From an uncultured bacterium (lineage in GTDB: Bacteria > Schekmanbacteria > GWA2-38-11 > J061), in assembly GCA_964549305.1 (NCBI GenBank), contig CAZJVM010000048.1, positions 7,102 through 20,109 on the forward strand: a stretch of 13,008 nt of DNA. The letters run 5' to 3'. Position numbers and translations under genes: made by a program. Within the stretch, counting starts at the first letter, position 1. Each line of letters starts with the position of its first letter. The notes below the pieces were generated by a model that worked only from the letters and a program-made list of their open reading frames with translations, was not told the DNA's origin and ran no database searches. This document shows positions 2,353 to 13,008 of this stretch, piece by piece.

Positions 2353-4251
2353 TCAAACAGTTTTCTTCCTCATATCTTTTATCGATGTTTTTGGATACCA
2401 GGTGGATTTAGCTCCAGGTCCAAGGCGCTCGACGACAACATCGAGAAGATACGGTTCGCCGCTCTTTATGGCGCTCTTTGCCCGTTCAAGTGCGGGTTTG
2501 ATTTCATCAGCTTTTTCTATCTTTTCCCCCTGCACTCCGAAACTCTTCGCGTAGCCCGCGTAGTCAACATCGGGATTTCCCAGATAACAGGCAATATCTT
2601 TTCCCATCTGCCCCTGTTTTCTCCCCATTGAAAACATCCTGCTTCTCGGGCCGTCATAGCTTCTGTTGTTATAAACACACGTTAGAAGGGGAACTTCATA
2701 TCTTGCCGCGCTCCAGAGAGCGGAGCATCCGCAAAACATCAATCCCCCGTCGCCTATGAGAGAAACAACCTGCCTGTCAGGTTCAGCGATTTGTACTCCC
2801 ACTGCCGCGCCGTGTCCCCATCCGAGCGCTGAACCCATTGTCCAGCCAATGCATTTCTTTCCCGATGGCGAGAAATCTATTAAATCGGTTGACCCCCAGG
2901 GGTTTTCAACCTCGGGAACGATTATTGCGTCATCATCGAGAGTATTGTTTAGCTCGGAAGTGAATCTCTCCCAGGAGAGCGGAGATTTGTCCCATTTTTT
3001 CTTTATGCGGTCCTTCTGCCTTTTTACCAGTCTTTGCCTGAAGGATAAAATTTTGGATTCCCTCGATGCTTTAATTTTAGCTATCCTTTCTTTTGAGAGG
3101 CGCGATTTTATTTCGTCAATAATTCCTCTTATCGTTTTTTTGACATTCCCGGCAATTCCAATATCCACGGGCTTTACACGCGCGATATCGGCGGTATCGA
3201 TGCGGGCGTGGATTATTTTTGCCCCGTCGGGAAGAGGACCCGGCATGCCAAGCGCCATCATACTCATATCAGGCATCTGAGTGCCGAAGTTGATGAATAA
3301 ATCAATGGCGAAATCGTAGGTCAGCCCTGCCATATATTTTCCGTGAAATAAATTATGCCCCGTGGGAAAATCCTTGTAAACACTTGCGCCCTGAGTCACG
3401 GGTATGTTCAAAAGCTCCGCGAGTTCCACCAAATCATCTGCCGCAAGCGCTCTCGTCACTTCGTGTCCCGCGTGAATGAGAGGCGCTTTTGCGTTGATTA
3501 GCATTTTAGCGGCTTTTTCGATTAAAGCGGAATCGGGCTCCATCTCCGTCGAGAATTCATAGTAATCGGGGAAGGGAATCTGTGCCGATATTTTGTCCGC
3601 GGACATTATATTGCTCGGCACCATAAGGTATGCCGGGCCTCCCGGCGCTATCTTTGACAGTTGAAAAGCCCGTTTAACGAGTTCGGGAATTCTTTCGGGC
3701 CACCTCGCCATCCAGCGCCACTTCGTGAATTGCTCGATTGCTTCCAGCCAGTCGTCTACATCTTCAAAACCGTTTCGCCCCGCGAACCTGCTGTCAGGAC
3801 CGTCAGTCACTATGACAAGGGAGGACTGGTCTTTCCAGGCGTTGTAAAGATTGTTCGAGGCGTGGGGAATGCCTATACGCGACATATTTATAAAACCGGT
3901 TTTACCGGTTGCCAGATGATATCCTTCCGCCATTGCAACCACCTGGCCTTCTTCGGTGCCCAGTATGAATCGCGGTTTGTCCCTTTCCACAAGGGCGTCG
4001 TAAAAAGGATATACGCCCGTGCCGTTGGCGCCGAATATATATTCAACTCCTGCGGCAGATGCCGTTTCAACAATCAATTCTCCCCCCGTGCCCGTAAAAT
4101 CTTTTGTTTTTACCGCTTTGGCGGGTTTATCCTCTATGGATCGGGCAAAAGATGTACTGCCTTTCAAAGTGAGTCCCGCGGCAACGAGCGCTTGTATGAA
4201 ACTTCTTCTTGTAAGGTTTCCGTCAATGTAATCCTTTATAAGTTCTTTCAT
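2353..4251 (-). CDS. Thiamine diphosphate-dependent enzyme (benzoylformate decarboxylase/acetolactate synthase superfamily) with putative Tat signal peptide
   Basis: 632 aa. PYR domain GVEYIFG...GTEEGQVVAMAEGY carries the cofactor-activating Glu, followed by PGGPAYL. The ThDP/Mg motif is GDGG...YNN, preceded by GSALGWGHGAAVG. The N-terminus has TRRSFIQ, a hydrophobic stretch and SFA. Confidence 0.9.
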   Translation of the reverse strand: MKELIKDYIDGNLTRRSFIQALVAAGLTLKGSTSFARSIEDKPAKAVKTKDFTGTGGELIVETASAAGVEYIFGANGTGVYPFYDALVERDKPRFILGTEEGQVVAMAEGYHLATGKTGFINMSRIGIPHASNNLYNAWKDQSSLVIVTDGPDSRFAGRNGFEDVDDWLEAIEQFTKWRWMARWPERIPELVKRAFQLSKIAPGGPAYLMVPSNIMSADKISAQIPFPDYYEFSTEMEPDSALIEKAAKMLINAKAPLIHAGHEVTRALAADDLVELAELLNIPVTQGASVYKDFPTGHNLFHGKYMAGLTYDFAIDLFINFGTQMPDMSMMALGMPGPLPDGAKIIHARIDTADIARVKPVDIGIAGNVKKTIRGIIDEIKSRLSKERIAKIKASRESKILSFRQRLVKRQKDRIKKKWDKSPLSWERFTSELNNTLDDDAIIVPEVENPWGSTDLIDFSPSGKKCIGWTMGSALGWGHGAAVGVQIAEPDRQVVSLIGDGGLMFCGCSALWSAARYEVPLLTCVYNNRSYDGPRSRMFSMGRKQGQMGKDIACYLGNPDVDYAGYAKSFGVQGEKIEKADEIKPALERAKSAIKSGEPYLLDVVVERLGPGAKSTWYPKTSIKDMRKKTV

Positions 4252-4349
4252 TTTTTACCCCCCCCGCGGTAAGTGTTTTTAAAGAATGCAAAAGACGGCA
4301 ACGGCAAATATCTGTCTTTTAGAGGCAGACACATTTGAATCGGACATTG

Positions 4350-5306
4350 TTAAAAGTGAATCTTGAAAGCTATGGATTTTAAATCCTTATCTTCTTTTAA
4401 AAAGTTTCTTCCCTTCATCGTGAGCGCCAGGGCATTGTCCAGATAATTGTTTTGAAGTTTTCTATTGTATTTGTGAGTGTTGGAGACGGCATTGTATATG
4501 TTTCCCGTGTACCATCCGAATTCGAAGAATGAGAGAATTGCCCCTGCCACATAAATATCGCGGTTGAAAGATTCAATTGCGCCCCAGGCGAAAAGACCGT
4601 TTAGCAGAAAAGCGAATACAGCATCTTTTTTTCTTCCCGAATAAACCTGTCCCGCGCCGGGAAGCACCGAGGACATTAATCCCGCAAGCATAGGGGATTT
4701 CAGCTTTAACTCTTTCACGCCTTTAAGATTTTCGAGAAGTTTATCGGCGTCTTCCTTTTCCCCGCTTTTTTCTTTGATATTTCCGAGTTCTCTTTCAGCG
4801 TCTTCATAGCGTCCTTCCCTGATGAGATTTTTTCCCAGCAGAAGCTTGAGCTTTTCCGCCACATCGCTGTCAGGCATCTCCTTTTCTATTTCGTTGAGAA
4901 GTCTCATCGCCGAATCTCTGTCCTTTGTTTTTATGAAGGAATTCGCAAGGTTGAGGATGGCTTCTTCGAGTCTCGCGTTTTCGGGATATTTGTTCAGAAA
5001 GTCCCTGTATGAATCTATTGCTTCGGAATATTTTTCCGCCTTGTAGTAGGAGTTTGCGATGCCGATTCGCGCGTCCGGAATTTTCGGAGACAGGGGGTAA
5101 TAGGATATAAACCTTTTGTATTCCGTTATAGCTCTGTAATAATCGCCTTCGCCAAGAAGGTTGCCGGCAAACTTCAGAAGGCGCTCAGCTTCCTTTTCTT
5201 CGCCGCTTTGGTTTTGGGCGGGCGATGAGGCAGGGAAAAATGCAAGAAAGAGGAATAAGAGAATAATTGGAATCAGGTCATAAGATAGATTGTTATTTTT
5301 TTTCAT
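4350..5306 (-). CDS. Secreted/membrane TPR protein (BamD/CpoB-like TPRs) with a C-terminal hydrophobic PGxGQ domain
   Basis: Sec-type signal (LIPIILLFLFLAFFPASSPA). TPRs include GDYYRAITEYKRFISYYP and EKYSEAIDSYRDFLNKYP. The C-terminal part has KSPMLAGLMSSVLPGAGQVYSG and two more hydrophobic segments. The start overlaps the upstream gene by 14 nt. Confidence 0.8.
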   Translation of the reverse strand: MKKNNNLSYDLIPIILLFLFLAFFPASSPAQNQSGEEKEAERLLKFAGNLLGEGDYYRAITEYKRFISYYPLSPKIPDARIGIANSYYKAEKYSEAIDSYRDFLNKYPENARLEEAILNLANSFIKTKDRDSAMRLLNEIEKEMPDSDVAEKLKLLLGKNLIREGRYEDAERELGNIKEKSGEKEDADKLLENLKGVKELKLKSPMLAGLMSSVLPGAGQVYSGRKKDAVFAFLLNGLFAWGAIESFNRDIYVAGAILSFFEFGWYTGNIYNAVSNTHKYNRKLQNNYLDNALALTMKGRNFLKEDKDLKSIAFKIHF

Positions 5307-5745
5307 CTGTCCACCAGAAATCGTTGTTTGAAAGAGGGTCAGCGATGTAATAGCGATTACCTTTTTTTATGAGCTTTCCCCTTTCAAGCTCTTCCGCTTC
5401 GTGCATCAGGCGGTCCGTTGTCATCATCAGGCCGATTATGGCGCCGTGTTTTTTGAGCGCTTCTCTCGAGTAATGTGAGCAACTTGGATACATACTGCAG
5501 TTTGTGGAGGTGAGGTTGGACGCTCCGTACTGATAAACGGTCAACCCCGCGTTGAGAAAAGCGAGAAAAGGGTTTTTCAGGGCGTTCAATATTCTGCTTT
5601 CCGTTTTATCGGAAGAGGAAGTTGAAAAGGTTTTTGTTTTGTAAAATTCATCGGGACTCTTCAGTCCTTTGGAATGAGAAAGCGGGGCAATCAGAAGAAG
5701 TGCGGCAACTGATAAAACGATATGCCTGCTGAAATTTAATTTCAT
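5293..5745 (-). CDS. YidD-like (membrane protein insertion efficiency factor / 'haemolytic' domain) protein with N-terminal signal peptide
   Basis: Core YQ...NCSMYPSCSHYSREALKKHGAIIGLMMTTDRL...DP matches YidD C-x-F/Y-x-P-T/S-C-S-x-Y...HG...G...R. The ATG lies 1 nt after the mobA TGA. Confidence 0.8.
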   Translation of the reverse strand: MKLNFSRHIVLSVAALLLIAPLSHSKGLKSPDEFYKTKTFSTSSSDKTESRILNALKNPFLAFLNAGLTVYQYGASNLTSTNCSMYPSCSHYSREALKKHGAIIGLMMTTDRLMHEAEELERGKLIKKGNRYYIADPLSNNDFWWTDEKK

Positions 5746-5746
5746 A

Positions 5747-6382
5747 TCAGGAATTCTTTTTACTTAAAAGTGTATCTCTCGCGAAATCAAGGTCTTTTGA
5801 TGTATTGATATTCAGGAACATTCTTTTTTCCACGTCAAAACTTTCCCACGATATTTTCTCTATATATCTTACATTAACTTTCGGGAAAAGGTCTATAATT
5901 TTCAGGTTTCCCGACGCGAGAAGGTCTCTTACAGTGGGGAGGCAAGCCTTGGAGTATATTGCGTGAAGAGGCTGATAATGTCTGCCTTCGCGGGGAAGGA
6001 GAATGTCGTAATTTTTATTCTCCGAAATCATTTTCTCTATAAAAGGCAGTTCAATAAAAGGCATATCGCAGGATAGAAAAAAGTTGTAAAAGGTGGGAGA
6101 TTTTACCAGTCCCGTATAAATTCCTCCCAGCGAACCGCTTTCGGGAATAAGGTCATAGAGCACTTCGTTTTTTATATCCGGAAGCTTGCTGTCCCTTCTT
6201 GATATTATGACCACATTTTTAAAAACAGCGGAGACTTTTCTTATCATAAGTTCAAGAAGAGATTCGTCCCCTATCATGGTGTTTACTTTATCTTCGCCGA
6301 GTCTTTTGCTCCTTCCTCCGGCAAGAATGAAGCAAAACATATCGTCGTAATCCCATTCTCCGGGCGTGTTGAAAAAATTCAA
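5747..6382 (-). CDS. mobA: Molybdenum cofactor guanylyltransferase
   Basis: Motifs ILAGGRSKRLG.DK, GSLGGIYTGL, SCDMPF, QPLHAIY and FLNINT. The TTG start has an AAGGAG SD 7 nt upstream. It is adjacent to mobB and moeA. Confidence 0.92.
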   Translation of the reverse strand: MNFFNTPGEWDYDDMFCFILAGGRSKRLGEDKVNTMIGDESLLELMIRKVSAVFKNVVIISRRDSKLPDIKNEVLYDLIPESGSLGGIYTGLVKSPTFYNFFLSCDMPFIELPFIEKMISENKNYDILLPREGRHYQPLHAIYSKACLPTVRDLLASGNLKIIDLFPKVNVRYIEKISWESFDVEKRMFLNINTSKDLDFARDTLLSKKNS

Positions 6383-6411
6383 AAACCTTCTCCTTTGTAA
6401 TTTGAAAAAAT

Positions 6412-7077
6412 TTATTTTTTGTTTTTTATCTCTACCCTGATATCTCTGTTTTCTTCAATACCGTTTAATCCCTTAAGATAACCTTCTATCATCCCCTTAA
6501 GGGTTGTTTGAATAAAGGGCTTAAGAGATATCTCCTTGTCGTTTACGAAGAGTTTTACGGAAGGCGAATCACCGTTCTTTTCCTTGAGAAACTTTTTTTC
6601 GATGAGCGCCGCGACGCCTTGCGCGTCGTCGAGTCCGAATTTCGGCACATTTACCGGCAAATCAACATCAGTGACCAGTGCCACGAGCTTGTCGTCTTCT
6701 TCACAGAGCATCGTGTCGTGTACGCCTTTTCTGAATATCTCGATTTTCGGGAAGTTTTCCCTTTTGTAACCTTCCGTTAGAATGAGGTCGAGATTGTGAA
6801 AATATTTTGACCTTATTTCTTCAATGCAAAGGTCTGATTCGGAGTTTCTCACCAGCGCGAGTTTGTTGGGAGAGGACACGATAACCTGATAGGCGCCTGC
6901 CTGCTTGTGCCTCCAACTGTCTTTTCCCTTTACATCGAATTCAAAATCCTGATGGGAATGGTGCTTTACGGTGCCTACCGTATATCCGAGCGCGGTTAAT
7001 TTCGGTAAAAGTTTCTCAACGAATGTTGTCTTTCCCGAGTTTGATTTTCCTACAATAGAAATAACCGGTGGTAACAT
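6412..7077 (-). CDS. mobB: Molybdopterin-guanine dinucleotide biosynthesis protein B with C-terminal extension
   Basis: P-loop VGKSNSGKTT, GTVKHHSH, GKDSWRHKQAGA, DLILTEGYK...PKIE. Confidence 0.93.
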   Translation of the reverse strand: MLPPVISIVGKSNSGKTTFVEKLLPKLTALGYTVGTVKHHSHQDFEFDVKGKDSWRHKQAGAYQVIVSSPNKLALVRNSESDLCIEEIRSKYFHNLDLILTEGYKRENFPKIEIFRKGVHDTMLCEEDDKLVALVTDVDLPVNVPKFGLDDAQGVAALIEKKFLKEKNGDSPSVKLFVNDKEISLKPFIQTTLKGMIEGYLKGLNGIEENRDIRVEIKNKK

Positions 7078-7098
7078 TATTTTTTGCCTTTCATAATT

Positions 7099-8313
7099 TT
7101 AGATGGATTCATCGATGAGGATTACATCTGCCTCTTCGCCTTTCTTGAGAAGCGTTGCCTCTCTTTCGACAACGGCAATGCTGTTTGCTTTTGACATTGA
7201 TGTAAGTATTCCGGAACCCTGTGCTCCGGTGGTGCGGAAAAAGTATTTCCCTTCTCTATTTTCGGTGATTGCGCGGATAAAGTGCTTTCTTCCCGCTTTT
7301 TTCTTTATGTCTTCCAAAGCTTCCGCTTTAACGCTTTTTCTGTGTAAATTCGAAAATCCCTGAATCATCCTGATCATAGGCCGCACATAAATTTCAAAGC
7401 AGAGCATCGTGGCAGTGGGATTTCCGGGAAGCCCGAATACGAGCGATTTTCCGAGAGTGCCGAAGAGCAGGGGTTTCCCCGGTTTTTGGGCGACCTTCCA
7501 GAACTTTTTTTCAAATCCGAGTTCTCCGAGGATATCCTTTACAAAATCATAATCGCCGACGGATACGCCTCCCGTGGTAAGGATGATATCCGCAGATGAC
7601 GCTTTTTTAACGGCGTCCCGCAGTATGTCTCTGTCGTCTTTGATGATTCCCATCTGAAGGGTCAGGGCACCGCTTTCGTTAATCTGCGCTTCGAGGGCGT
7701 AATTGTTGCTTGTTACAATTTTTCCGGGCTCGATTTTTTCATCCAGGTCGACAAGCTCGTCTCCTGTGGAAAGAACTGCAACTGTCGGTCGCCTGTAGAC
7801 ATTAATAGCGGATGCCTGCACTGATGCCATCACTCCAATGTCTGCAGGTGTGATTACTTTTCCGCGCGGTACTACGATATCGCCCACATTTATGTCTTCT
7901 CCCTTTTTCCTGATGTTTTCACCCCTTTCAGCGCTTCTTTCAAGCACTACTTCGTCTCCGCTGTCATGGGCGAACTCCCGCATTACAACCGCTTCGGCGC
8001 CTTCGGGAATGGGCGCGCCCGTCATAATTCTCGCGCATTCCCCCTTTTCGATTTTCCCTTCGTAGAAACTTCCCGCGGGAATATCTGTTTTTACTTTCAA
8101 CTTAACGCCCGAGGTCTCAGACGCAGATTCCACATCCTCTGTCTTTACGGCAAAACCGTCCATTGCGGAATTGTCCCATGGAGGCACGGTGATTGACGCC
8201 TTGACATCTTCGGCGCAGACTCTGTTAAGGGAGTTGAGAAGCGGAACTTCCTCTATATGTGAAGAAACGGGAGTTTCCAGGACTATGGACAATGCTTCTT
8301 CAACTGTAATCAT
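7099..8313 (-). CDS. moeA: Molybdopterin molybdotransferase MoeA (gephyrin-like)
   Basis: Motifs PPWDNSAMDGFA, IMTGAPIPEGA, STGDEL, TTGGVSVGDYD, KPGKP, LPGNP and QGSGILTSM. An AGGAG SD precedes the ATG at 8313. Confidence 0.96.
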   Translation of the reverse strand: MITVEEALSIVLETPVSSHIEEVPLLNSLNRVCAEDVKASITVPPWDNSAMDGFAVKTEDVESASETSGVKLKVKTDIPAGSFYEGKIEKGECARIMTGAPIPEGAEAVVMREFAHDSGDEVVLERSAERGENIRKKGEDINVGDIVVPRGKVITPADIGVMASVQASAINVYRRPTVAVLSTGDELVDLDEKIEPGKIVTSNNYALEAQINESGALTLQMGIIKDDRDILRDAVKKASSADIILTTGGVSVGDYDFVKDILGELGFEKKFWKVAQKPGKPLLFGTLGKSLVFGLPGNPTATMLCFEIYVRPMIRMIQGFSNLHRKSVKAEALEDIKKKAGRKHFIRAITENREGKYFFRTTGAQGSGILTSMSKANSIAVVEREATLLKKGEEADVILIDESI

Positions 8314-8469: not shown

Positions 8470-8841
8470 TTATGGCTGAGTCTGAATCTTCGTTGCTTTT
8501 ACGATGGCATCCATAAGGGTGGAAATCTTAAGCGGTTTGCTGAAATACTCGAAAGCGCCTGCCCTCAGGGAGTCCTCCCTGAAATTTTTATCTCCAAATG
8601 CAGTTGTAATGATAACCGGTGTTTTAGGAAACCTCTTTTTTATTCCTCTGATTACATCGATTCCGCATATCTCGGGCATATTTTTATCGGTGATTACAAG
8701 GTCGAATGTTTCCTGCCCCATCATTGTAAGCGCGTCTTTCCCGTTAAAGGATTTAGATACAGAATATCCCTTGAGGTTGAGGATGTCTTCAAGCATCGAG
8801 CAAAACTCAGTGTCGTCATCGATTATAAGTATTTTTTTCAT
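8470..8841 (-). CDS. Single-domain response regulator (stand-alone receiver)
   Basis: 123 aa: ILIIDDD, phospho-acceptor Asp in VITDKNMP, IITTAFG and YFSKP. There is no output domain. Confidence 0.92.
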   Translation of the reverse strand: MKKILIIDDDTEFCSMLEDILNLKGYSVSKSFNGKDALTMMGQETFDLVITDKNMPEICGIDVIRGIKKRFPKTPVIITTAFGDKNFREDSLRAGAFEYFSKPLKISTLMDAIVKATKIQTQP

Positions 8842-8892
8842 AGCTGATTATAGTTAAAAATTAAGAAAAACAATTAACTGTCTGAAATGGTA

Positions 8893-8909
8893 AGCAGAAA
8901 TCGTGCCAA
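8893..8909 (-). promoter_or_regulatory. Sigma54 (-24/-12) promoter
   Basis: Minus strand reads TTGGCACGATTTCTGCT, with exact GG-N10-GC spacing and one mismatch to TGGCACG-N4-TTGCW. It lies about 50 nt upstream of the ATG at 8841 and directly downstream of a GAFTGA activator gene. Confidence 0.85.
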
Positions 8910-8935
8910 AGTTGAAAAAATGATTATAAGCGAAG

Positions 8936-8948
8936 TATCTTATTGATA
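8936..8948 (-). promoter_or_regulatory. Candidate IHF binding site
   Basis: TATCAATAAGATA against WATCAANNNNTTR (one mismatch), in an AT-rich tract between the sigma54 promoter and the upstream palindromes, which is the usual position. Confidence 0.45.
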
Positions 8949-8989
8949 GATAAGGATGATTTGTTTTTTTTAGAGGGGTTTTTAATAAA

Positions 8990-9028
8990 ATTGCCGCAAT
9001 TCAGAGGTCATTGATATGACATTTTGTC
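8990..9028. promoter_or_regulatory. Candidate upstream activator sequences for a sigma54 enhancer-binding protein
   Basis: Three clustered dyads: ATTGC-C-GCAAT (8990-9000), GTCAT-N4-ATGAC (9007-9020) and GACA-N3-TGTC (9018-9028). They sit about 110-145 nt upstream of the predicted start site. Confidence 0.45.
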
Positions 9029-9029
9029 C

Positions 9030-10394
9030 CTATTCCTTGCCTTTATTGCTTAAATTGTACTGTTTTTCTTTCCGGTATAAAGTTCTCGAGCTGATTCCGA
9101 GAATCTCTGCCGCTTTTTGTTTGTTGCCTCCCACCTCTTCAAGCACGGCATTGATATAGTCCTTTTCAAAATTATCGAGGGTCATTCTGCTGCCCATAAC
9201 TCTGGAAAGATTGAGCCCTTTCCTGTCTGTGGCAAGGTGTAAATCTTGCGCTTTGATTGTTGACTTTCTGCAGAGCATTACTGTTCTTTCGATAGTGTTT
9301 TCAAGCTCCCTTACATTTCCTTTCCAGTCAAGCGAGCTGAGCGCGCTTATAGCGTCTTCGGAGATATTTTTTTTAATCCCCTGTTCTGTGGCTATTTTAT
9401 CGAGGAAATGATTAATGAGCAGGGGGATGTCTTCCCTTCTTTCATTAAGCGGCGGAATGTGCAGAGGTATGACATTCAGCCGGTAAAAAAGATCTTCCCT
9501 GAATGTCTGTTTTTCGATTTCTTCCTCCAGGTTTTTGTTGGTGGCGGCTATAATTCTCACATCAACATTCACAGTATGCACGCTTCCAACGGGTCTTATG
9601 ACCCTGTCCTGAAGTACGCGCAGAAGTTTTGCCTGAAGTCCCAGCCCCATATCCCCGATTTCGTCGAGGAATAATGTTCCCTTGTTTGCTTTTTCGAAAA
9701 GCCCCTGTTTCGAACCCACTGCCCCGGTAAATGCTCCCTTCACGTGTCCGAAAAGTTCGCTTTCGAGAAGCCCTTCGGGAATTGCGGTGCAGTTTATGGG
9801 CACGAAAGGTTTCTGCTTTCTTCTTCCGTTATAGTGAATTGCCTTTGCCACCAACTCCTTACCTGTGCCGCTCGCGCCGTAGATTACAAGATTGCTGTTG
9901 TTTTCCGATACCACTCTTATCATTTCAAAGACTTTCTGCATCGGCGCGCTTTTCCCGATGATGTTAAAGAAGCTGTATTTCCTTTCCACTTCGTTTCGAA
10001 GCTGTATATTTTCAATTTCGAGGTTGCGTTTTTCGATGGCTTTTTTGACAGTAATGAGAATCTCATTCATTTTGAAGGGCTTTGTGATGTAGTGGTAAGC
10101 GCCTTTTTTTACAGCTTCTATAGCGGTTTCAATTGAGCCGAAAGCGGTAATCATTATTACTTCCAATTTTGAGTCGATTTGTTTTATTTTTTTTAAAAGC
10201 TGCATTCCGCTCATCTGCGGCATCTTCATATCGCTGATAACGATGGAAAAGTTTTCCTCGCCGGCGAGCTTGAGGGCGTCGTTTCCGCTTCCGGCGACTT
10301 TCACTTCAAAACCTTCTTCTGTGAGAAAGTCCCTCAGGACTTCCGCCATTTCAAGGTCGTCGTCAACAACTAATATTTGCGTCTTTTCCGTCAT
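9030..10394 (-). CDS. NtrC/AtoC/ZraR-family sigma54-dependent response regulator (REC-AAA+-Fis HTH)
   Basis: REC (ILVVDDD, ISDMKMP, ITAFG, TKP), Walker A GASGTGKE, ESELFGHVKGAFTGA, Walker B LFLDEIG, QAKLLRVLQ, FREDLFYRL, GNVRELEN, and HTH GNKQKAAEILGISSRTLYRK. It has an ATGA 4-nt overlap with the kinase. Confidence 0.96.
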   Translation of the reverse strand: MTEKTQILVVDDDLEMAEVLRDFLTEEGFEVKVAGSGNDALKLAGEENFSIVISDMKMPQMSGMQLLKKIKQIDSKLEVIMITAFGSIETAIEAVKKGAYHYITKPFKMNEILITVKKAIEKRNLEIENIQLRNEVERKYSFFNIIGKSAPMQKVFEMIRVVSENNSNLVIYGASGTGKELVAKAIHYNGRRKQKPFVPINCTAIPEGLLESELFGHVKGAFTGAVGSKQGLFEKANKGTLFLDEIGDMGLGLQAKLLRVLQDRVIRPVGSVHTVNVDVRIIAATNKNLEEEIEKQTFREDLFYRLNVIPLHIPPLNERREDIPLLINHFLDKIATEQGIKKNISEDAISALSSLDWKGNVRELENTIERTVMLCRKSTIKAQDLHLATDRKGLNLSRVMGSRMTLDNFEKDYINAVLEEVGGNKQKAAEILGISSRTLYRKEKQYNLSNKGKE

Positions 10395-13008
10395 ATCCCT
10401 TCCGCCTTATGGTCTGCGGCATTTTTAATCTCCGGCAGTTGTATAAGAAACTCCGTGCCTTTCCCTACCGTGCTTTTAACTTCAATATTTCCTTCGTGGT
10501 CTTTTATTATTCCGTAAGTTACGGCAAGCCCAAGTCCCGTCCCTTTCCCGATTTCCTTTGTGGTGAAAAAGGGATCATAAATTCTCGAGATATTTTTTTT
10601 CTCTATTCCTTCGCCCGTGTCGCAAATTCTGATTTCAACCATTTTTTCACTTTTGTTTATTGCTGTTTCTACAGTAAGTTTACCTCCCTGTGGCATTGCG
10701 TGCAGGGAATTTATAAAAAGGTTCAGGAATACCTGTTGAATCTGATTTTCATCTCCTTCAACAAGGGAGATATTCTTATCCGCTTTTTTTTCTATTACAA
10801 TCTGAGATTTGTCAAGTTTTGTTTCAAGAAGGATAAGGGTGTCGTCTATGACGCTGTTAATGTTTACGCCTTTTATCTCCTTTTTTTCAGAGCGCGTGAA
10901 TTTAAGAAGCTGTTGAATGAGCGATGTTATTCGGTCAATCTGCCTTATTATCGATTTGAGGCCGTCGTTTATTTTAGGATTGTCATCAACAAGAGAAAGT
11001 ATGTATTCCGCTCTTCCGGAGATTATGTTAAGGGGTGTGCCGATTTCGTGGGCAAGTCCGGCAGTCAACTCACCCACCGCGGAGAGTTTTTCCGACTGTA
11101 TTAGCTGTTTTTCGAGGCTTTTTTTCTCCGAAATGTCCCTCACGATAACTGAGCACCCTATTATATCACCGTTGCTGTCTTTAAGGGGTGTGCGCGTCAA
11201 TGCGACATTTATTCTTTTTCCTGACTTCGTGATTCTTTCCGTTTCATAATTTTTGAGTGCTCCCTTTTCGCTGGTGGTGTCTATTATCCACTGCATTTCG
11301 CCCTTGTTTTTAAGGTCTTCAGGTAGAAGTATTTCAAAGGATTTGCCTATTATTTCATCTTTCCTGTATTCATACATATCTTCCGCGCCTTTATTCCATG
11401 TTGTAATGATATTTGAGTTGTCAATACTGATAATGGCGTCTGCTGAGTTTTCTGAAATATTGGCAATATAACTTTCGTGCCTTCGCAGACTTTCTTCCAT
11501 AGCTCTTTTCTCGGTAACATCTTCTATGAAAGCTACCGCGCCCGATATTTCGTCACTATGCCCCTTCAACGGGCTTGCCACAAAATCGAAAAATCCCTCT
11601 CCTATGAAAGGAAGCTTTATATTCGTGCCCTGTCGTGATTTTTTCTCTCTGATTACTTTCTTTATTTCTTCAGCTAAAATGCCTCCATCTTCACGGGAGA
11701 GGAATTCGGAAATGCTTCTTCCGGTAACGGATTTTTCCAATATGCCCGATGCTGACTCAAGATAATCATTCCAGGCGATGATATTCATATTTATATCAAC
11801 TGCCAAAACCCCCACTGATATGCTTTCGAGCATATTTTGCGTGAATGCTATATTTTCATTAAGCTCTCTTGTCCTTTCCTCTACAAGTTGCTCGAGGTGG
11901 GAGTAGGACTCTTCCAGCTTTTGAGCCATTATATTGAATGATTTTGCCATTTCGCCCACTTCGTCTTTTGTGGTGATATTTACCCTTTTATTCAGCTCGC
12001 CGCTTCCGATTTCTCCCGCTGCTTCACTCAGGTTTAAAAGCGGTTTGCTTATGTTAAGCGATATGTAATAAGCCACCGCGGCAATGAGGAAGAAAAAGAT
12101 TATTCCCAGACTTATTGCCTGATTTCTCAGTCTGTTTAAGGGCATGAACGCTTCACTTTCGTCAAGCTCACAGCAGAGCACCCATCCCGTTTCGGGAGAG
12201 AGTCGGTAGGTGCCGACGATTTTTTTTCCATTTTTTCTGAGAAAACTTCCGGTAATGACCTTTTTATTAAATGCCTGAATGATTTCCTCTTTTTTTATTA
12301 CCGCAGATTCCTTTCCTTTGTCATATTCTGTAAGCATCTTGCCTGAATGATTTACAAAATAAAAAATGCTCGTTTCTCCGAGGTTTCTGCCTTCATCAAG
12401 AAGTTCAAAAAGTTTTGCATTGCTCACTTTCCCCGCGACAACACCGAGAAAAGCGCCTCCTGAAGTCTTCAACGGAGAACTGACCGTCATGGTGGGAACG
12501 GCATCGTTATAGGAGATGGTAGTGGAAGTTTTGATAGAACCCTTTTTGAAGTATTTGGTTTTTGACTTGTCCATACCTATGAGGGCGGGATTTACGGCGG
12601 AAATTATTACTCCATTCATGCCGATTACTAAAAGTTCATTGTTGTTTGCGTCCTCCGTTTCCAATTTTTCAAGGTATTTCTTCAGTTCGTTAGCGGATTT
12701 AACTCTTCTCTTTTTGCTTCGTATCGGTTCCTGAACTATTTCCACATTGTTGAGCATATATTGATTACCGGGAAAAATGGAGGATATGTTGATTTCTCTT
12801 TCTCTGATAAAATGACTTATTTTTGTGTTTACATAAAGGGAGACTGTGGCAATCTGGTTAAATATCCTTGATTTGAGTGCTTCTCTGCTGATTGTATATC
12901 CCTGATATATTGCAAGAGAGAAGGGGAGAAGAGACAGAAGGAGAAGCGCGATGAAAATTTTTCTTCCTATTCCGCTGAATATAAGGAAACTTCGTTTCTC
13001 TTTATTTG
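10391..13008 (-). CDS. Membrane sensor histidine kinase (TM1-Cache-like-TM2-HAMP-PAS-PAS-HisKA-HATPase), 5' end outside the window
   Basis: The frame is open upstream of the track's ATG (12757) to the window edge and encodes TM1 (RKIFIALLLLSLLPFSLAIYQ). Also seen: TM2 ISLGIIFFFLIAAVAYYI, HAMP (SKPL...DEVGEMAKSFNIM), two PAS domains ending EDVTE and RDISE, H-box LAHEIGTPL, N-box QVFLNLFINS, DTGEGI, FFTTK and GTGLGL. Confidence 0.95.
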   Translation of the reverse strand, partial: NKEKRSFLIFSGIGRKIFIALLLLSLLPFSLAIYQGYTISREALKSRIFNQIATVSLYVNTKISHFIREREINISSIFPGNQYMLNNVEIVQEPIRSKKRRVKSANELKKYLEKLETEDANNNELLVIGMNGVIISAVNPALIGMDKSKTKYFKKGSIKTSTTISYNDAVPTMTVSSPLKTSGGAFLGVVAGKVSNAKLFELLDEGRNLGETSIFYFVNHSGKMLTEYDKGKESAVIKKEEIIQAFNKKVITGSFLRKNGKKIVGTYRLSPETGWVLCCELDESEAFMPLNRLRNQAISLGIIFFFLIAAVAYYISLNISKPLLNLSEAAGEIGSGELNKRVNITTKDEVGEMAKSFNIMAQKLEESYSHLEQLVEERTRELNENIAFTQNMLESISVGVLAVDINMNIIAWNDYLESASGILEKSVTGRSISEFLSREDGGILAEEIKKVIREKKSRQGTNIKLPFIGEGFFDFVASPLKGHSDEISGAVAFIEDVTEKRAMEESLRRHESYIANISENSADAIISIDNSNIITTWNKGAEDMYEYRKDEIIGKSFEILLPEDLKNKGEMQWIIDTTSEKGALKNYETERITKSGKRINVALTRTPLKDSNGDIIGCSVIVRDISEKKSLEKQLIQSEKLSAVGELTAGLAHEIGTPLNIISGRAEYILSLVDDNPKINDGLKSIIRQIDRITSLIQQLLKFTRSEKKEIKGVNINSVIDDTLILLETKLDKSQIVIEKKADKNISLVEGDENQIQQVFLNLFINSLHAMPQGGKLTVETAINKSEKMVEIRICDTGEGIEKKNISRIYDPFFTTKEIGKGTGLGLAVTYGIIKDHEGNIEVKSTVGKGTEFLIQLPEIKNAADHKAEGI

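Follow-up and report, generated by a model that had tools for sequence, protein, structure and literature searches.

The window analysed here is a 13,008-nucleotide (nt) stretch of DNA from an uncultured bacterium of the Schekmanbacteria (GenBank assembly GCA_964549305.1, contig CAZJVM010000048.1). On its minus strand, positions 2353-4251 form an uninterrupted open reading frame (ORF) of 632 codons for a thiamine diphosphate (ThDP)-dependent enzyme, which we call P0001. Its translation begins MKELIKDYIDGNLTRRSFIQALVAAGLTLKGSTSFARS..., matching the N-terminus quoted in a first-pass annotation that was made from the DNA letters and proposed a periplasmic enzyme with a signal peptide of the Tat (twin-arginine translocation) type. 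We find that the leader of P0001 carries a twin-arginine motif whose two arginines are invariant in the aligned members of a large clade of homologues, and sequence comparison indicates that the enzyme probably works outside the cytoplasm. The gene and the parts of its leader are as follows.

2353..4251, minus strand: complete gene for the ThDP enzyme P0001, 632 amino acids (aa) (ORF list, translation, Pfam TPP_enzyme_N/M/C, AlphaFold 2 (AF2) model)
4258..4265, minus strand: Shine-Dalgarno-like purine run (G8), 6 nt 5' of the ATG (sequence reading)
4213..4251, minus strand: n-region of the leader, residues 1-13 (MKELIKDYIDGNL) (AF2 helix 2-9; column statistics)
4192..4212, minus strand: twin-arginine motif T14-R15-R16-S17-F18-I19-Q20 (alignment; the sub-threshold matches of Tat hidden Markov models (HMMs) begin here)
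4165..4203, minus strand: uncharged h-region, residues 17-29 (SFIQALVAAGLTL), with a near-invariant G26 (hydropathy comparison)
4144..4164, minus strand: c-region, residues 30-36 (KGSTSFA) (sequence only)
4093..4143, minus strand: variable linker from leader to catalytic core, residues 37-53 (entropy, AF2)

Behind the leader lies the catalytic core, which identifies the enzyme.

3754..4089, minus strand: PYR (TPP_enzyme_N) domain, residues 55-166 (Pfam; E101 invariant)
3949-3951, minus strand: codon of the cofactor-activating Glu101 (invariant in 110 of 110 aligned rows)
3127..3522, minus strand: central TPP_enzyme_M domain, residues 244-375, including H299 (Pfam; alignment with 9v6f)
2437..2862, minus strand: PP (TPP_enzyme_C) domain, residues 464-605 (Pfam; D501, G502 and N529 invariant)
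2665-2754, minus strand: ThDP-Mg motif G500-D501-G502-X25-N528-N529 (alignment)

Pfam models TPP_enzyme_N, M and C match P0001 at 81.6, 71.6 and 93.9 bits, each above its gathering score. Together with the catalytic Glu and an intact GDG-X25-NN motif, which falls within the GDG-X(24-27)-NN pattern, these three domains assign the protein to the ThDP superfamily of the pyruvate oxidase (POX)/acetohydroxyacid synthase (AHAS)/benzoylformate decarboxylase (BFD) type. The AF2 model of the full protein, built on a 110-row alignment, has a mean predicted local distance difference test (pLDDT) score of 93.6 and matches solved ThDP enzymes at E values of 1e-39 to 6e-41. The NCBIfam models all score below their cut-offs: the best match, PRK08327 ('thiamine pyrophosphate-requiring protein'), reaches 230.2 bits against 456, the BFD equivalog PRK07092 215.2 against 493, and the acetolactate synthase large subunit TIGR00118 210.3 against 538. 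With the Pfam domains above threshold, P0001 is therefore a genuine ThDP enzyme outside every named equivalog. Its sequence places it as a ThDP/Mg-dependent member of the BFD/glyoxylate-carboligase branch, in a large uncharacterised clade. The closest solved structures (7orx, 8x3x (BbmA/HKA synthase), glyoxylate carboligase, BFD and benzaldehyde lyase) are 22-25% identical to P0001, with template-modelling (TM) scores on the query of 0.70-0.77. Judging from the activities of these enzymes, P0001 most likely decarboxylates, carboligates or cleaves, as an acyloin, a small 2-oxo acid or hydroxy-carbonyl compound.

Benzoylformate and 4-hydroxybenzoylformate decarboxylases (1bfd, 9v6f, 7orx, 6qsi) have the three-domain ThDP fold in common with P0001; no other proteins match it better in sequence (E 7e-43) or in fold (TM 0.70-0.71 on the query). 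They also share the catalytic Glu, the GDG-X25-NN motif and the FPT-x-H histidine; H299, found in at least 90% of rows, pairs with the FPTRH histidine of BFD in the 9v6f alignment. However, identity to the BFD enzymes is only 22-25%, and the known ones have no N-terminal leader. In the structure-search alignment, the Ser of the BFD motif GNPGSNE is replaced by Thr in P0001 and the His of INLHS by a gap or Ser; we take these two positions to be BFD Ser26 and His70. Glyoxylate carboligase (2pan, 8i01), BbmA/HKA synthase (8x3x) and benzaldehyde lyase/formolase (2ag0, 4qpz) have the same fold with similar scores and bring carboligation and lyase reactions to the branch besides decarboxylation; these enzymes, too, lack a leader, and P0001 scores far below their family cut-offs.

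Pfam TPP_enzyme_N begins at residue 55, which makes residues 1-54 an addition. Within the genome itself, the four longest matches to ThDP paralogues (contigs C2, twice, C9 and C146) begin at query positions 55-57, and the solved structures among the matches listed align from P0001 residue 42-67, mostly 65. By these alignments, the roughly 50 additional residues noticed in the first-pass annotation amount to a 54-residue extension. It starts with the n-region, where AF2 places a helix (residues 2-9) whose hydrophobic positions L4, Y8 and I9 are conserved across the clade. Then comes T-R-R-S-F-I-Q (residues 14-20), which agrees with the Tat consensus S/T-R-R-x-F-L-K except that Q replaces K. Thirteen uncharged residues follow directly after RR, then K30 and finally S-F-A↓R, a candidate signal-peptidase site with small residues at −3 and −1. 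In the linker behind it, column entropy rises to 3.07 bits (about 1.8 elsewhere), length differs between homologues, and block 41-50 has an AF2 pLDDT of 67. The leader belongs to a conserved class that opens with a short, predicted amphipathic helix, continues with G-x-[IL]-[ST]-R-R-x-F and ends in a short h-region rich in Gly, Ala and Ser.

The h-region has a mean Kyte-Doolittle hydropathy of 1.76 and a best 10-residue window of 2.06. Among 13 other RR leaders from this genome, the uncharged run has a median of 17 residues and a minimum of 12, and the best window spans 0.96-2.58; P0001 falls inside the range, and Lys30 is located at the h/c boundary. The caveat attached to the original proposal, that the h-region is weakly hydrophobic and contains a Lys, is thereby largely resolved. 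The machinery for export is present in the host genome, with TatC at 233.7 bits and three TatA/B/E matches at 62-70 bits. Textbook Tat signals occupy the same position in divergent clade members (P0139, 26.5 bits, and P0152, 17.6 bits, to TIGR01409, with a cut-off of 16.7). In a protein-language-model comparison, residues 1-45 have among their neighbours the Tat-signal fragments of YedY/MsrP and of Rieske proteins (PF10399), at a weak score of 0.90.

The motif is strikingly conserved. A homologue search with P0001 gave 545 matches with E ≤ 1e-3, 120 of which were listed, and 117 of these 120 fit the expression [ST]?RR.[FLIVM] within their first 60 residues. By inspection, P0035 (SRRDA) and P0102 (motif further in) also carry S-R-R-D, and among the 120 the leader is missing only from P0016 (593 aa). 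An exhaustive search of representatives recovered the same leader down to about 30% identity; beyond that, relatives are leaderless, about 555-565 residues long, and align from residue 55. From 61 of the 120 listed homologues and 22 sequences of the exhaustive search we assembled an alignment, A2, of 83 leader-bearing sequences; P0127, P0129, P0134 and P0136, all with RR in the first 50 residues, were left out for odd or truncated ends. In A2, R15 and R16 are invariant (83/83), F18 and G26 reach 99% and S/T14 at least 83%. M1, L4, L9 and S14 stand at 82-94%, A31 and S34 at 83-87%, and A24, F27 and S28 at 75-78%. RR also occurs in 81 of the 82 N-termini from related loci, the exception (L081) being cut at its 5' end. 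The proposed check on the export reading, conservation of RRxF among homologues, thus came out in its favour, and the fit of TRRSFIQ to S/T-R-R-x-F is borne out as more than chance.

In a tree of the mature part only (quick method, LG+G4), the leader-bearing proteins form one clade with an SH-aLRT support of 100, comprising the 83 leader rows together with P0183, a long branch that lacks the leader. It follows that the leader has a single origin and has been retained. This clade is widespread in metagenomes from soil, sediment and sea, and its members are annotated only as 'thiamine pyrophosphate-binding protein' or 'benzoylformate decarboxylase'. A homologue search with residues 1-45 alone returned only the query among 28 candidates, the word index being unsuited to such a question.

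The same leader architecture is found on unrelated enzymes. An HMM of the leader, built from alignment A3, detects it on dienelactone hydrolases from Acidobacteriota genomes (L105 and L102; ...HG-x-ISRR-x-F...). The L105 leader passes TIGR01409 at 17.5 bits, with a cut-off of 16.7. Pfam PF23678 ('YqhI-like') matches the L102 leader at 60.9 bits and that of L105 at 23.7 (gathering cut-off 27). For the first 60 residues of P0001 it gives no match at E up to 10; weak matches were obtained between PF23678 and the ThDP leader of P0004 and between the P0050 leader and the YghX model, both at 11.3 bits. Hydrolases of the YghX family and the ThDP leaders share the helix, G-x-I-S-[RK]-R-x-F, a short Gly/Ala-rich stretch and an A-x-A-like end, whereas the YghX passenger is an alpha/beta hydrolase, unrelated to the ThDP enzyme. 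The solved chain of the E. coli-type YghX (4zv9, 238 aa) begins just past the A-x-A-like end of the leader, so the YghX enzyme folds without it.

In E. coli K-12 (NC_000913.3, 3146856-3147740, corresponding to L106:16857-17741), the small-protein gene yqhI, 47 codons long, lies over the 5' end of the yghX pseudogene and is read in the same frame as the first part of yghX. 'YqhI' is therefore a leader fragment of a disrupted dienelactone hydrolase, and PF23678 describes the leader of the dienelactone hydrolase yghX. PMC11429745 describes YqhI as a putative soluble small protein. Literature searches on YqhI and YghX turned up no localisation or function data, and no export data for YghX were found among the papers listed that name it, which by title are strain-engineering and genomics studies; for dienelactone hydrolase with twin-arginine, nothing relevant appeared in titles and the starts of abstracts.

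A third unrelated fold bears the leader as well. A cupin encoded next to the ThDP gene at one related locus (L063:10990-12303) begins MRGLLAKLVNGEITRRQF... and has the same leader architecture, and in its homologues at other loci the leader is replaced by a signal of the Sec type (L049) or an ordinary Tat signal (L050). A module that occurs on three unrelated folds and is swappable with ordinary export signals makes most sense as a device for targeting, although its predicted structure and the strong constraint on it are unusual for one. What this analysis adds is the recognition of the leader as a conserved module that is predicted to fold and is common to YghX hydrolases and cupins.

Gene neighbourhoods of relatives also point to the periplasm. 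Among 82 related loci (80 metagenomic and 2 from genomes, where a genome-contig search with a single protein gave two), at least 33 have a CxxCH cytochrome gene on the same strand and no more than 400 nt from the ThDP gene, in many cases just 3 nt upstream of it. With the count restricted to the 49 loci that extend 700 nt or more to either side, 25 have an adjacent CxxCH cytochrome. A separate scan of the downstream side flags four further cytochrome loci (L001, L043, L082 and L092). L079, an example of the main cytochrome cluster, has a Sec-like N-terminus. TonB-dependent-receptor-like outer-membrane proteins occur in 21 related loci, and other recurrent neighbours include a Zn-dependent dehydrogenase, Rieske/VanA-type oxygenases and GntR regulators. 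When 84 loci were searched for small ORFs (35-130 aa, up to 1.5 kb away) that might encode a conserved partner, small cytochrome-c ORFs turned up near the ThDP gene in 7 loci, and besides cytochromes only antisense shadows of adjacent genes clustered.

Directly downstream of the ThDP gene lie a dihaem cytochrome in L001 (11905-12476) and a trihaem cytochrome in L002 (6131-7126). They are made of two or three repeats of the unit C-x-x-C-H ... RKS..W...V..M...GA.L and match Pfam Dehyd-heme_bind, the haem-binding domain of quinohemoprotein amine dehydrogenase.

The copy in the window is a plain clade member without a cytochrome neighbour. Its nearest metagenomic relatives (L013-L017 and L019, 44-48% identity) have no cytochrome in their short flanks either. 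When partner cytochromes were compared with the host genome by tblastn, the matches were weak: the c23 type (about 206 aa, monohaem) gave a best match of E 4e-12 (61 bits over 122 aa, contig C145) and the main c0 type one of E 3.6e-5 over 63 residues; none of the matches is on the window's contig. Elsewhere in the host genome (G000), large multihaem cytochromes are numerous (contigs C14, C42, C57 and C88), and a single frame can contain as many as 25 CxxCH motifs; this suggests extensive periplasmic or extracellular electron transfer.

Taken together, we favour, at a probability of about 65%, a Tat-exported, soluble and processed periplasmic enzyme related to BFD, with an unusual structured leader. 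What stands of the proposal in the first-pass annotation is a leader that is real and translated, an RR-x-F that is invariant clade-wide, a host with Tat machinery, and relatives paired with periplasmic c-type cytochromes. Export itself continues to be inferred, and several observations weigh against it. P0001 stays below the curated cut-offs of both Tat HMMs, with 14.9 bits where PF10518 (TAT_signal) requires 22.7 and 13.2 where TIGR01409 requires 16.7, and 3 of 7 other family leaders scanned had no Tat-signal HMM match at all. The longest uncharged run after RR has a clade median of 16 residues and is shorter than 12 in 17 of 83 members. The leader is about as conserved as the enzyme, with a mean pairwise identity in A2 of 42.8% versus 45.1% for the mature part, and is nearly free of insertions and deletions (gap fraction ≤ 0.01 over residues 1-40). 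Neither in the window nor in the two further genomes of the phylum that have the ThDP gene is it flanked by a cytochrome or another periplasmic partner. At the R-R position of the acidobacterial proteins, E. coli YghX has K-R, and UbiD and CoA-transferase III, presumably cytoplasmic, are encoded in some related gene clusters.

A predicted fold adds to these points. Signal peptides usually receive low AF2 confidence. In the full-length model of P0001, the leader has pLDDT values of 89, 93, 93 and 83 per ten residues and forms helices at 2-9, 15-24 and 29-40. Folded alone on a 23-row alignment, the 42-residue leader gives the same three helices at a pLDDT of 95.2 and a predicted TM score (pTM) of 0.70. 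The confidence is therefore not due to contacts with the ThDP core, and the leader is predicted to be an autonomous three-helix unit. A Foldseek search of the Protein Data Bank with the 42-residue model found no match better than E 5. Sub-threshold HMMs, core-like conservation and a predicted autonomous fold are not what signal peptides typically show, which leaves room for a reading without export.

One further variant concerns the cupins. The homologue at L026:1938-3191 keeps the leader-like module with S-R for R-R and a charged middle. This also counts against export; it could be a relic after relocation or a sign of a non-export role for the module.

The strongest competing explanation, which we nevertheless consider improbable, is that the N-terminal 40 residues are a folded three-helix (YqhI-like) domain of a cytoplasmic enzyme, with a role in partner docking, oligomerisation or regulation, and that the resemblance to Tat signals is partial or vestigial. 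The autonomous fold, the fixed length with core-like conservation, the low Tat HMM scores, the K-R and S-R variants and the UbiD and CoA-transferase neighbours all fit such a domain, and Pfam treats the equivalent YghX region as one (PF23678). Yet it would be hard to account otherwise for a match to S/T-R-R-x-F in which RR is invariant. An uncharged run followed by small −3/−1 residues and then a variable linker, ordinary Tat or Sec signals at the same position in clade members and cupin homologues, cytochrome c genes adjoining the enzyme gene, and a module that sits on three unrelated folds and is absent from the solved YghX chain also argue against such a domain. Nor does the leader look like an integral helix of the enzyme in the models, as it is predicted to fold without the enzyme and is found on unrelated ones. 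A complex prediction of leader 1-45 with core 52-632, run without controls, scored 0.25 against a mark of 0.32 and carries no weight in either direction.

Less probable still is an uncleaved Tat signal that tethers the enzyme to the outer face of the cytoplasmic membrane, as in Rieske proteins. A tether would go well with a leader that is strongly conserved throughout, with the variable linker that follows and with the Rieske Tat-signal domain PF10399 among the weak language-model neighbours. However, the uncharged run, 13 residues here, is short for a membrane-spanning anchor even at the clade median, and cleavage would agree with the small −3/−1 residues, which are S-F-A in P0001 and V-A-x-A in many relatives. 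We give almost no credence to an annotation artefact with the real start downstream of the RR motif, since a TTG codon at residue 29 is outweighed by a peptide conserved from Met1 in homologues down to about 30% identity, by the G-rich ribosome-binding run 5' of the ATG at 4251, and by the lack of another ATG before codon 106, which is already within the PYR domain.

In the window, the gene is one of a minus-strand series of MoeA, MobB, MobA, YidD-like, tetratricopeptide repeat (TPR)/YbgF-like, ThDP enzyme, TrmJ-like methyltransferase and MscS genes, and no neighbour in the window suggests a substrate. A scan for promoters and terminators near the ends of the ThDP gene found nothing exceeding shuffled expectation. 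The collection has five genomes of the phylum; all 3 of one family have the gene, and it was not found in either of the 2 of the other family (one of them 70% complete). Its synteny is kept in G004, of a sister genus, plus one inserted gene, which encodes a 1022-aa LVIVD-repeat beta-propeller (L012:5815-8883) between the TPR and ThDP genes and is absent from the window.

Further observations concern the flanking genes. At 4350-5745, a 150-aa YidD-like protein has an extra 65-residue N-terminal part with a signal-like start; its gene overlaps by 14 nt that of the 318-aa TPR/YbgF-like protein, which has a hydrophobic C-terminal third, and the pair recurs in G004 (L012). Upstream on the same strand, 5747-8313 holds the MoeA-MobB-MobA cluster for finishing the molybdenum cofactor. 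It would serve bis-molybdopterin guanine dinucleotide (bis-MGD) enzymes, themselves Tat substrates, and we saw no tie to the ThDP gene except synteny within the phylum. The translations from 8470-13006 give a two-component system of a single-domain response regulator, a sigma-54-type activator with a readable GAFTGA motif, and a PAS/HAMP histidine kinase that extends past the window end.

If the Tat-exported enzyme is the right reading, the precursor would be made with a twin-arginine leader of about 36 residues, and ThDP binding and dimerisation would take place in the cytoplasm. TatABC would recognise the invariant S/T-R-R-x-F and export the folded protein, and the leader would be cut near S-F-A↓R. 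The product would be a decarboxylase, lyase or carboligase, soluble in the periplasm, that acts on a small 2-oxo acid or an alpha-hydroxy-carbonyl compound. The conservation and predicted three-helix fold of the leader suggest that, before export, it may also bind something specific, such as a chaperone, a proofreading factor or itself. In the paired relatives, the cytochrome gene stands beside the enzyme gene, often 3 nt upstream, so these enzymes may pass electrons to their own Sec-exported c-type cytochrome; the window copy lacks this neighbour and may therefore carry out non-oxidative chemistry.

Known systems offer partial parallels. Tat-exported cofactor enzymes (hydrogenase small subunits, TorA/DmsA, MsrP/YedY) are loaded in the cytoplasm and carry the S/T-R-R-x-F-L-K motif, and their leader is sometimes conserved, with a dedicated chaperone binding it. 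P0001 differs in having ThDP instead of a metal centre and a leader predicted to fold alone, and no chaperone gene was found adjoining the enzyme gene. For the cytochrome-paired relatives only, PoxB-type pyruvate oxidase/dehydrogenase is a further comparison: it is a ThDP enzyme that passes electrons to the respiratory chain, but it is cytoplasmic, membrane-peripheral and uses flavin adenine dinucleotide (FAD), whereas the P0001 clade is nearest to FAD-free enzymes.

ThDP enzymes are regarded as cytoplasmic or organellar. Among the papers listed on thiamine or ThDP with Tat or the periplasm, judging by the listings and the starts of abstracts, we found none on an exported ThDP enzyme, in keeping with the statement in the first-pass annotation that no characterised example was known. 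A bolder and distinctly tentative reading, on balance doubtful, is that the roughly 40-residue three-helix module represents an undescribed class of structured Tat leader, export signal and checkpoint or docking unit in one; that P0001 is the first periplasmic ThDP enzyme; and that its relatives act as a ThDP:cytochrome c oxidoreductase. With a periplasmic ThDP enzyme, thiamine chemistry that makes and breaks C-C bonds would extend to the cell envelope, and ThDP would join the cofactors whose loading gives a reason for Tat export. In many relatives, c-type cytochromes and TonB-dependent receptors accompany the enzyme, which suggests an extracytoplasmic step, so far unrecognised, in the breakdown of small organic acids or aromatics, and a conserved, predicted-to-fold leader common to unrelated enzymes would bear on how Tat signals are recognised and proofread.

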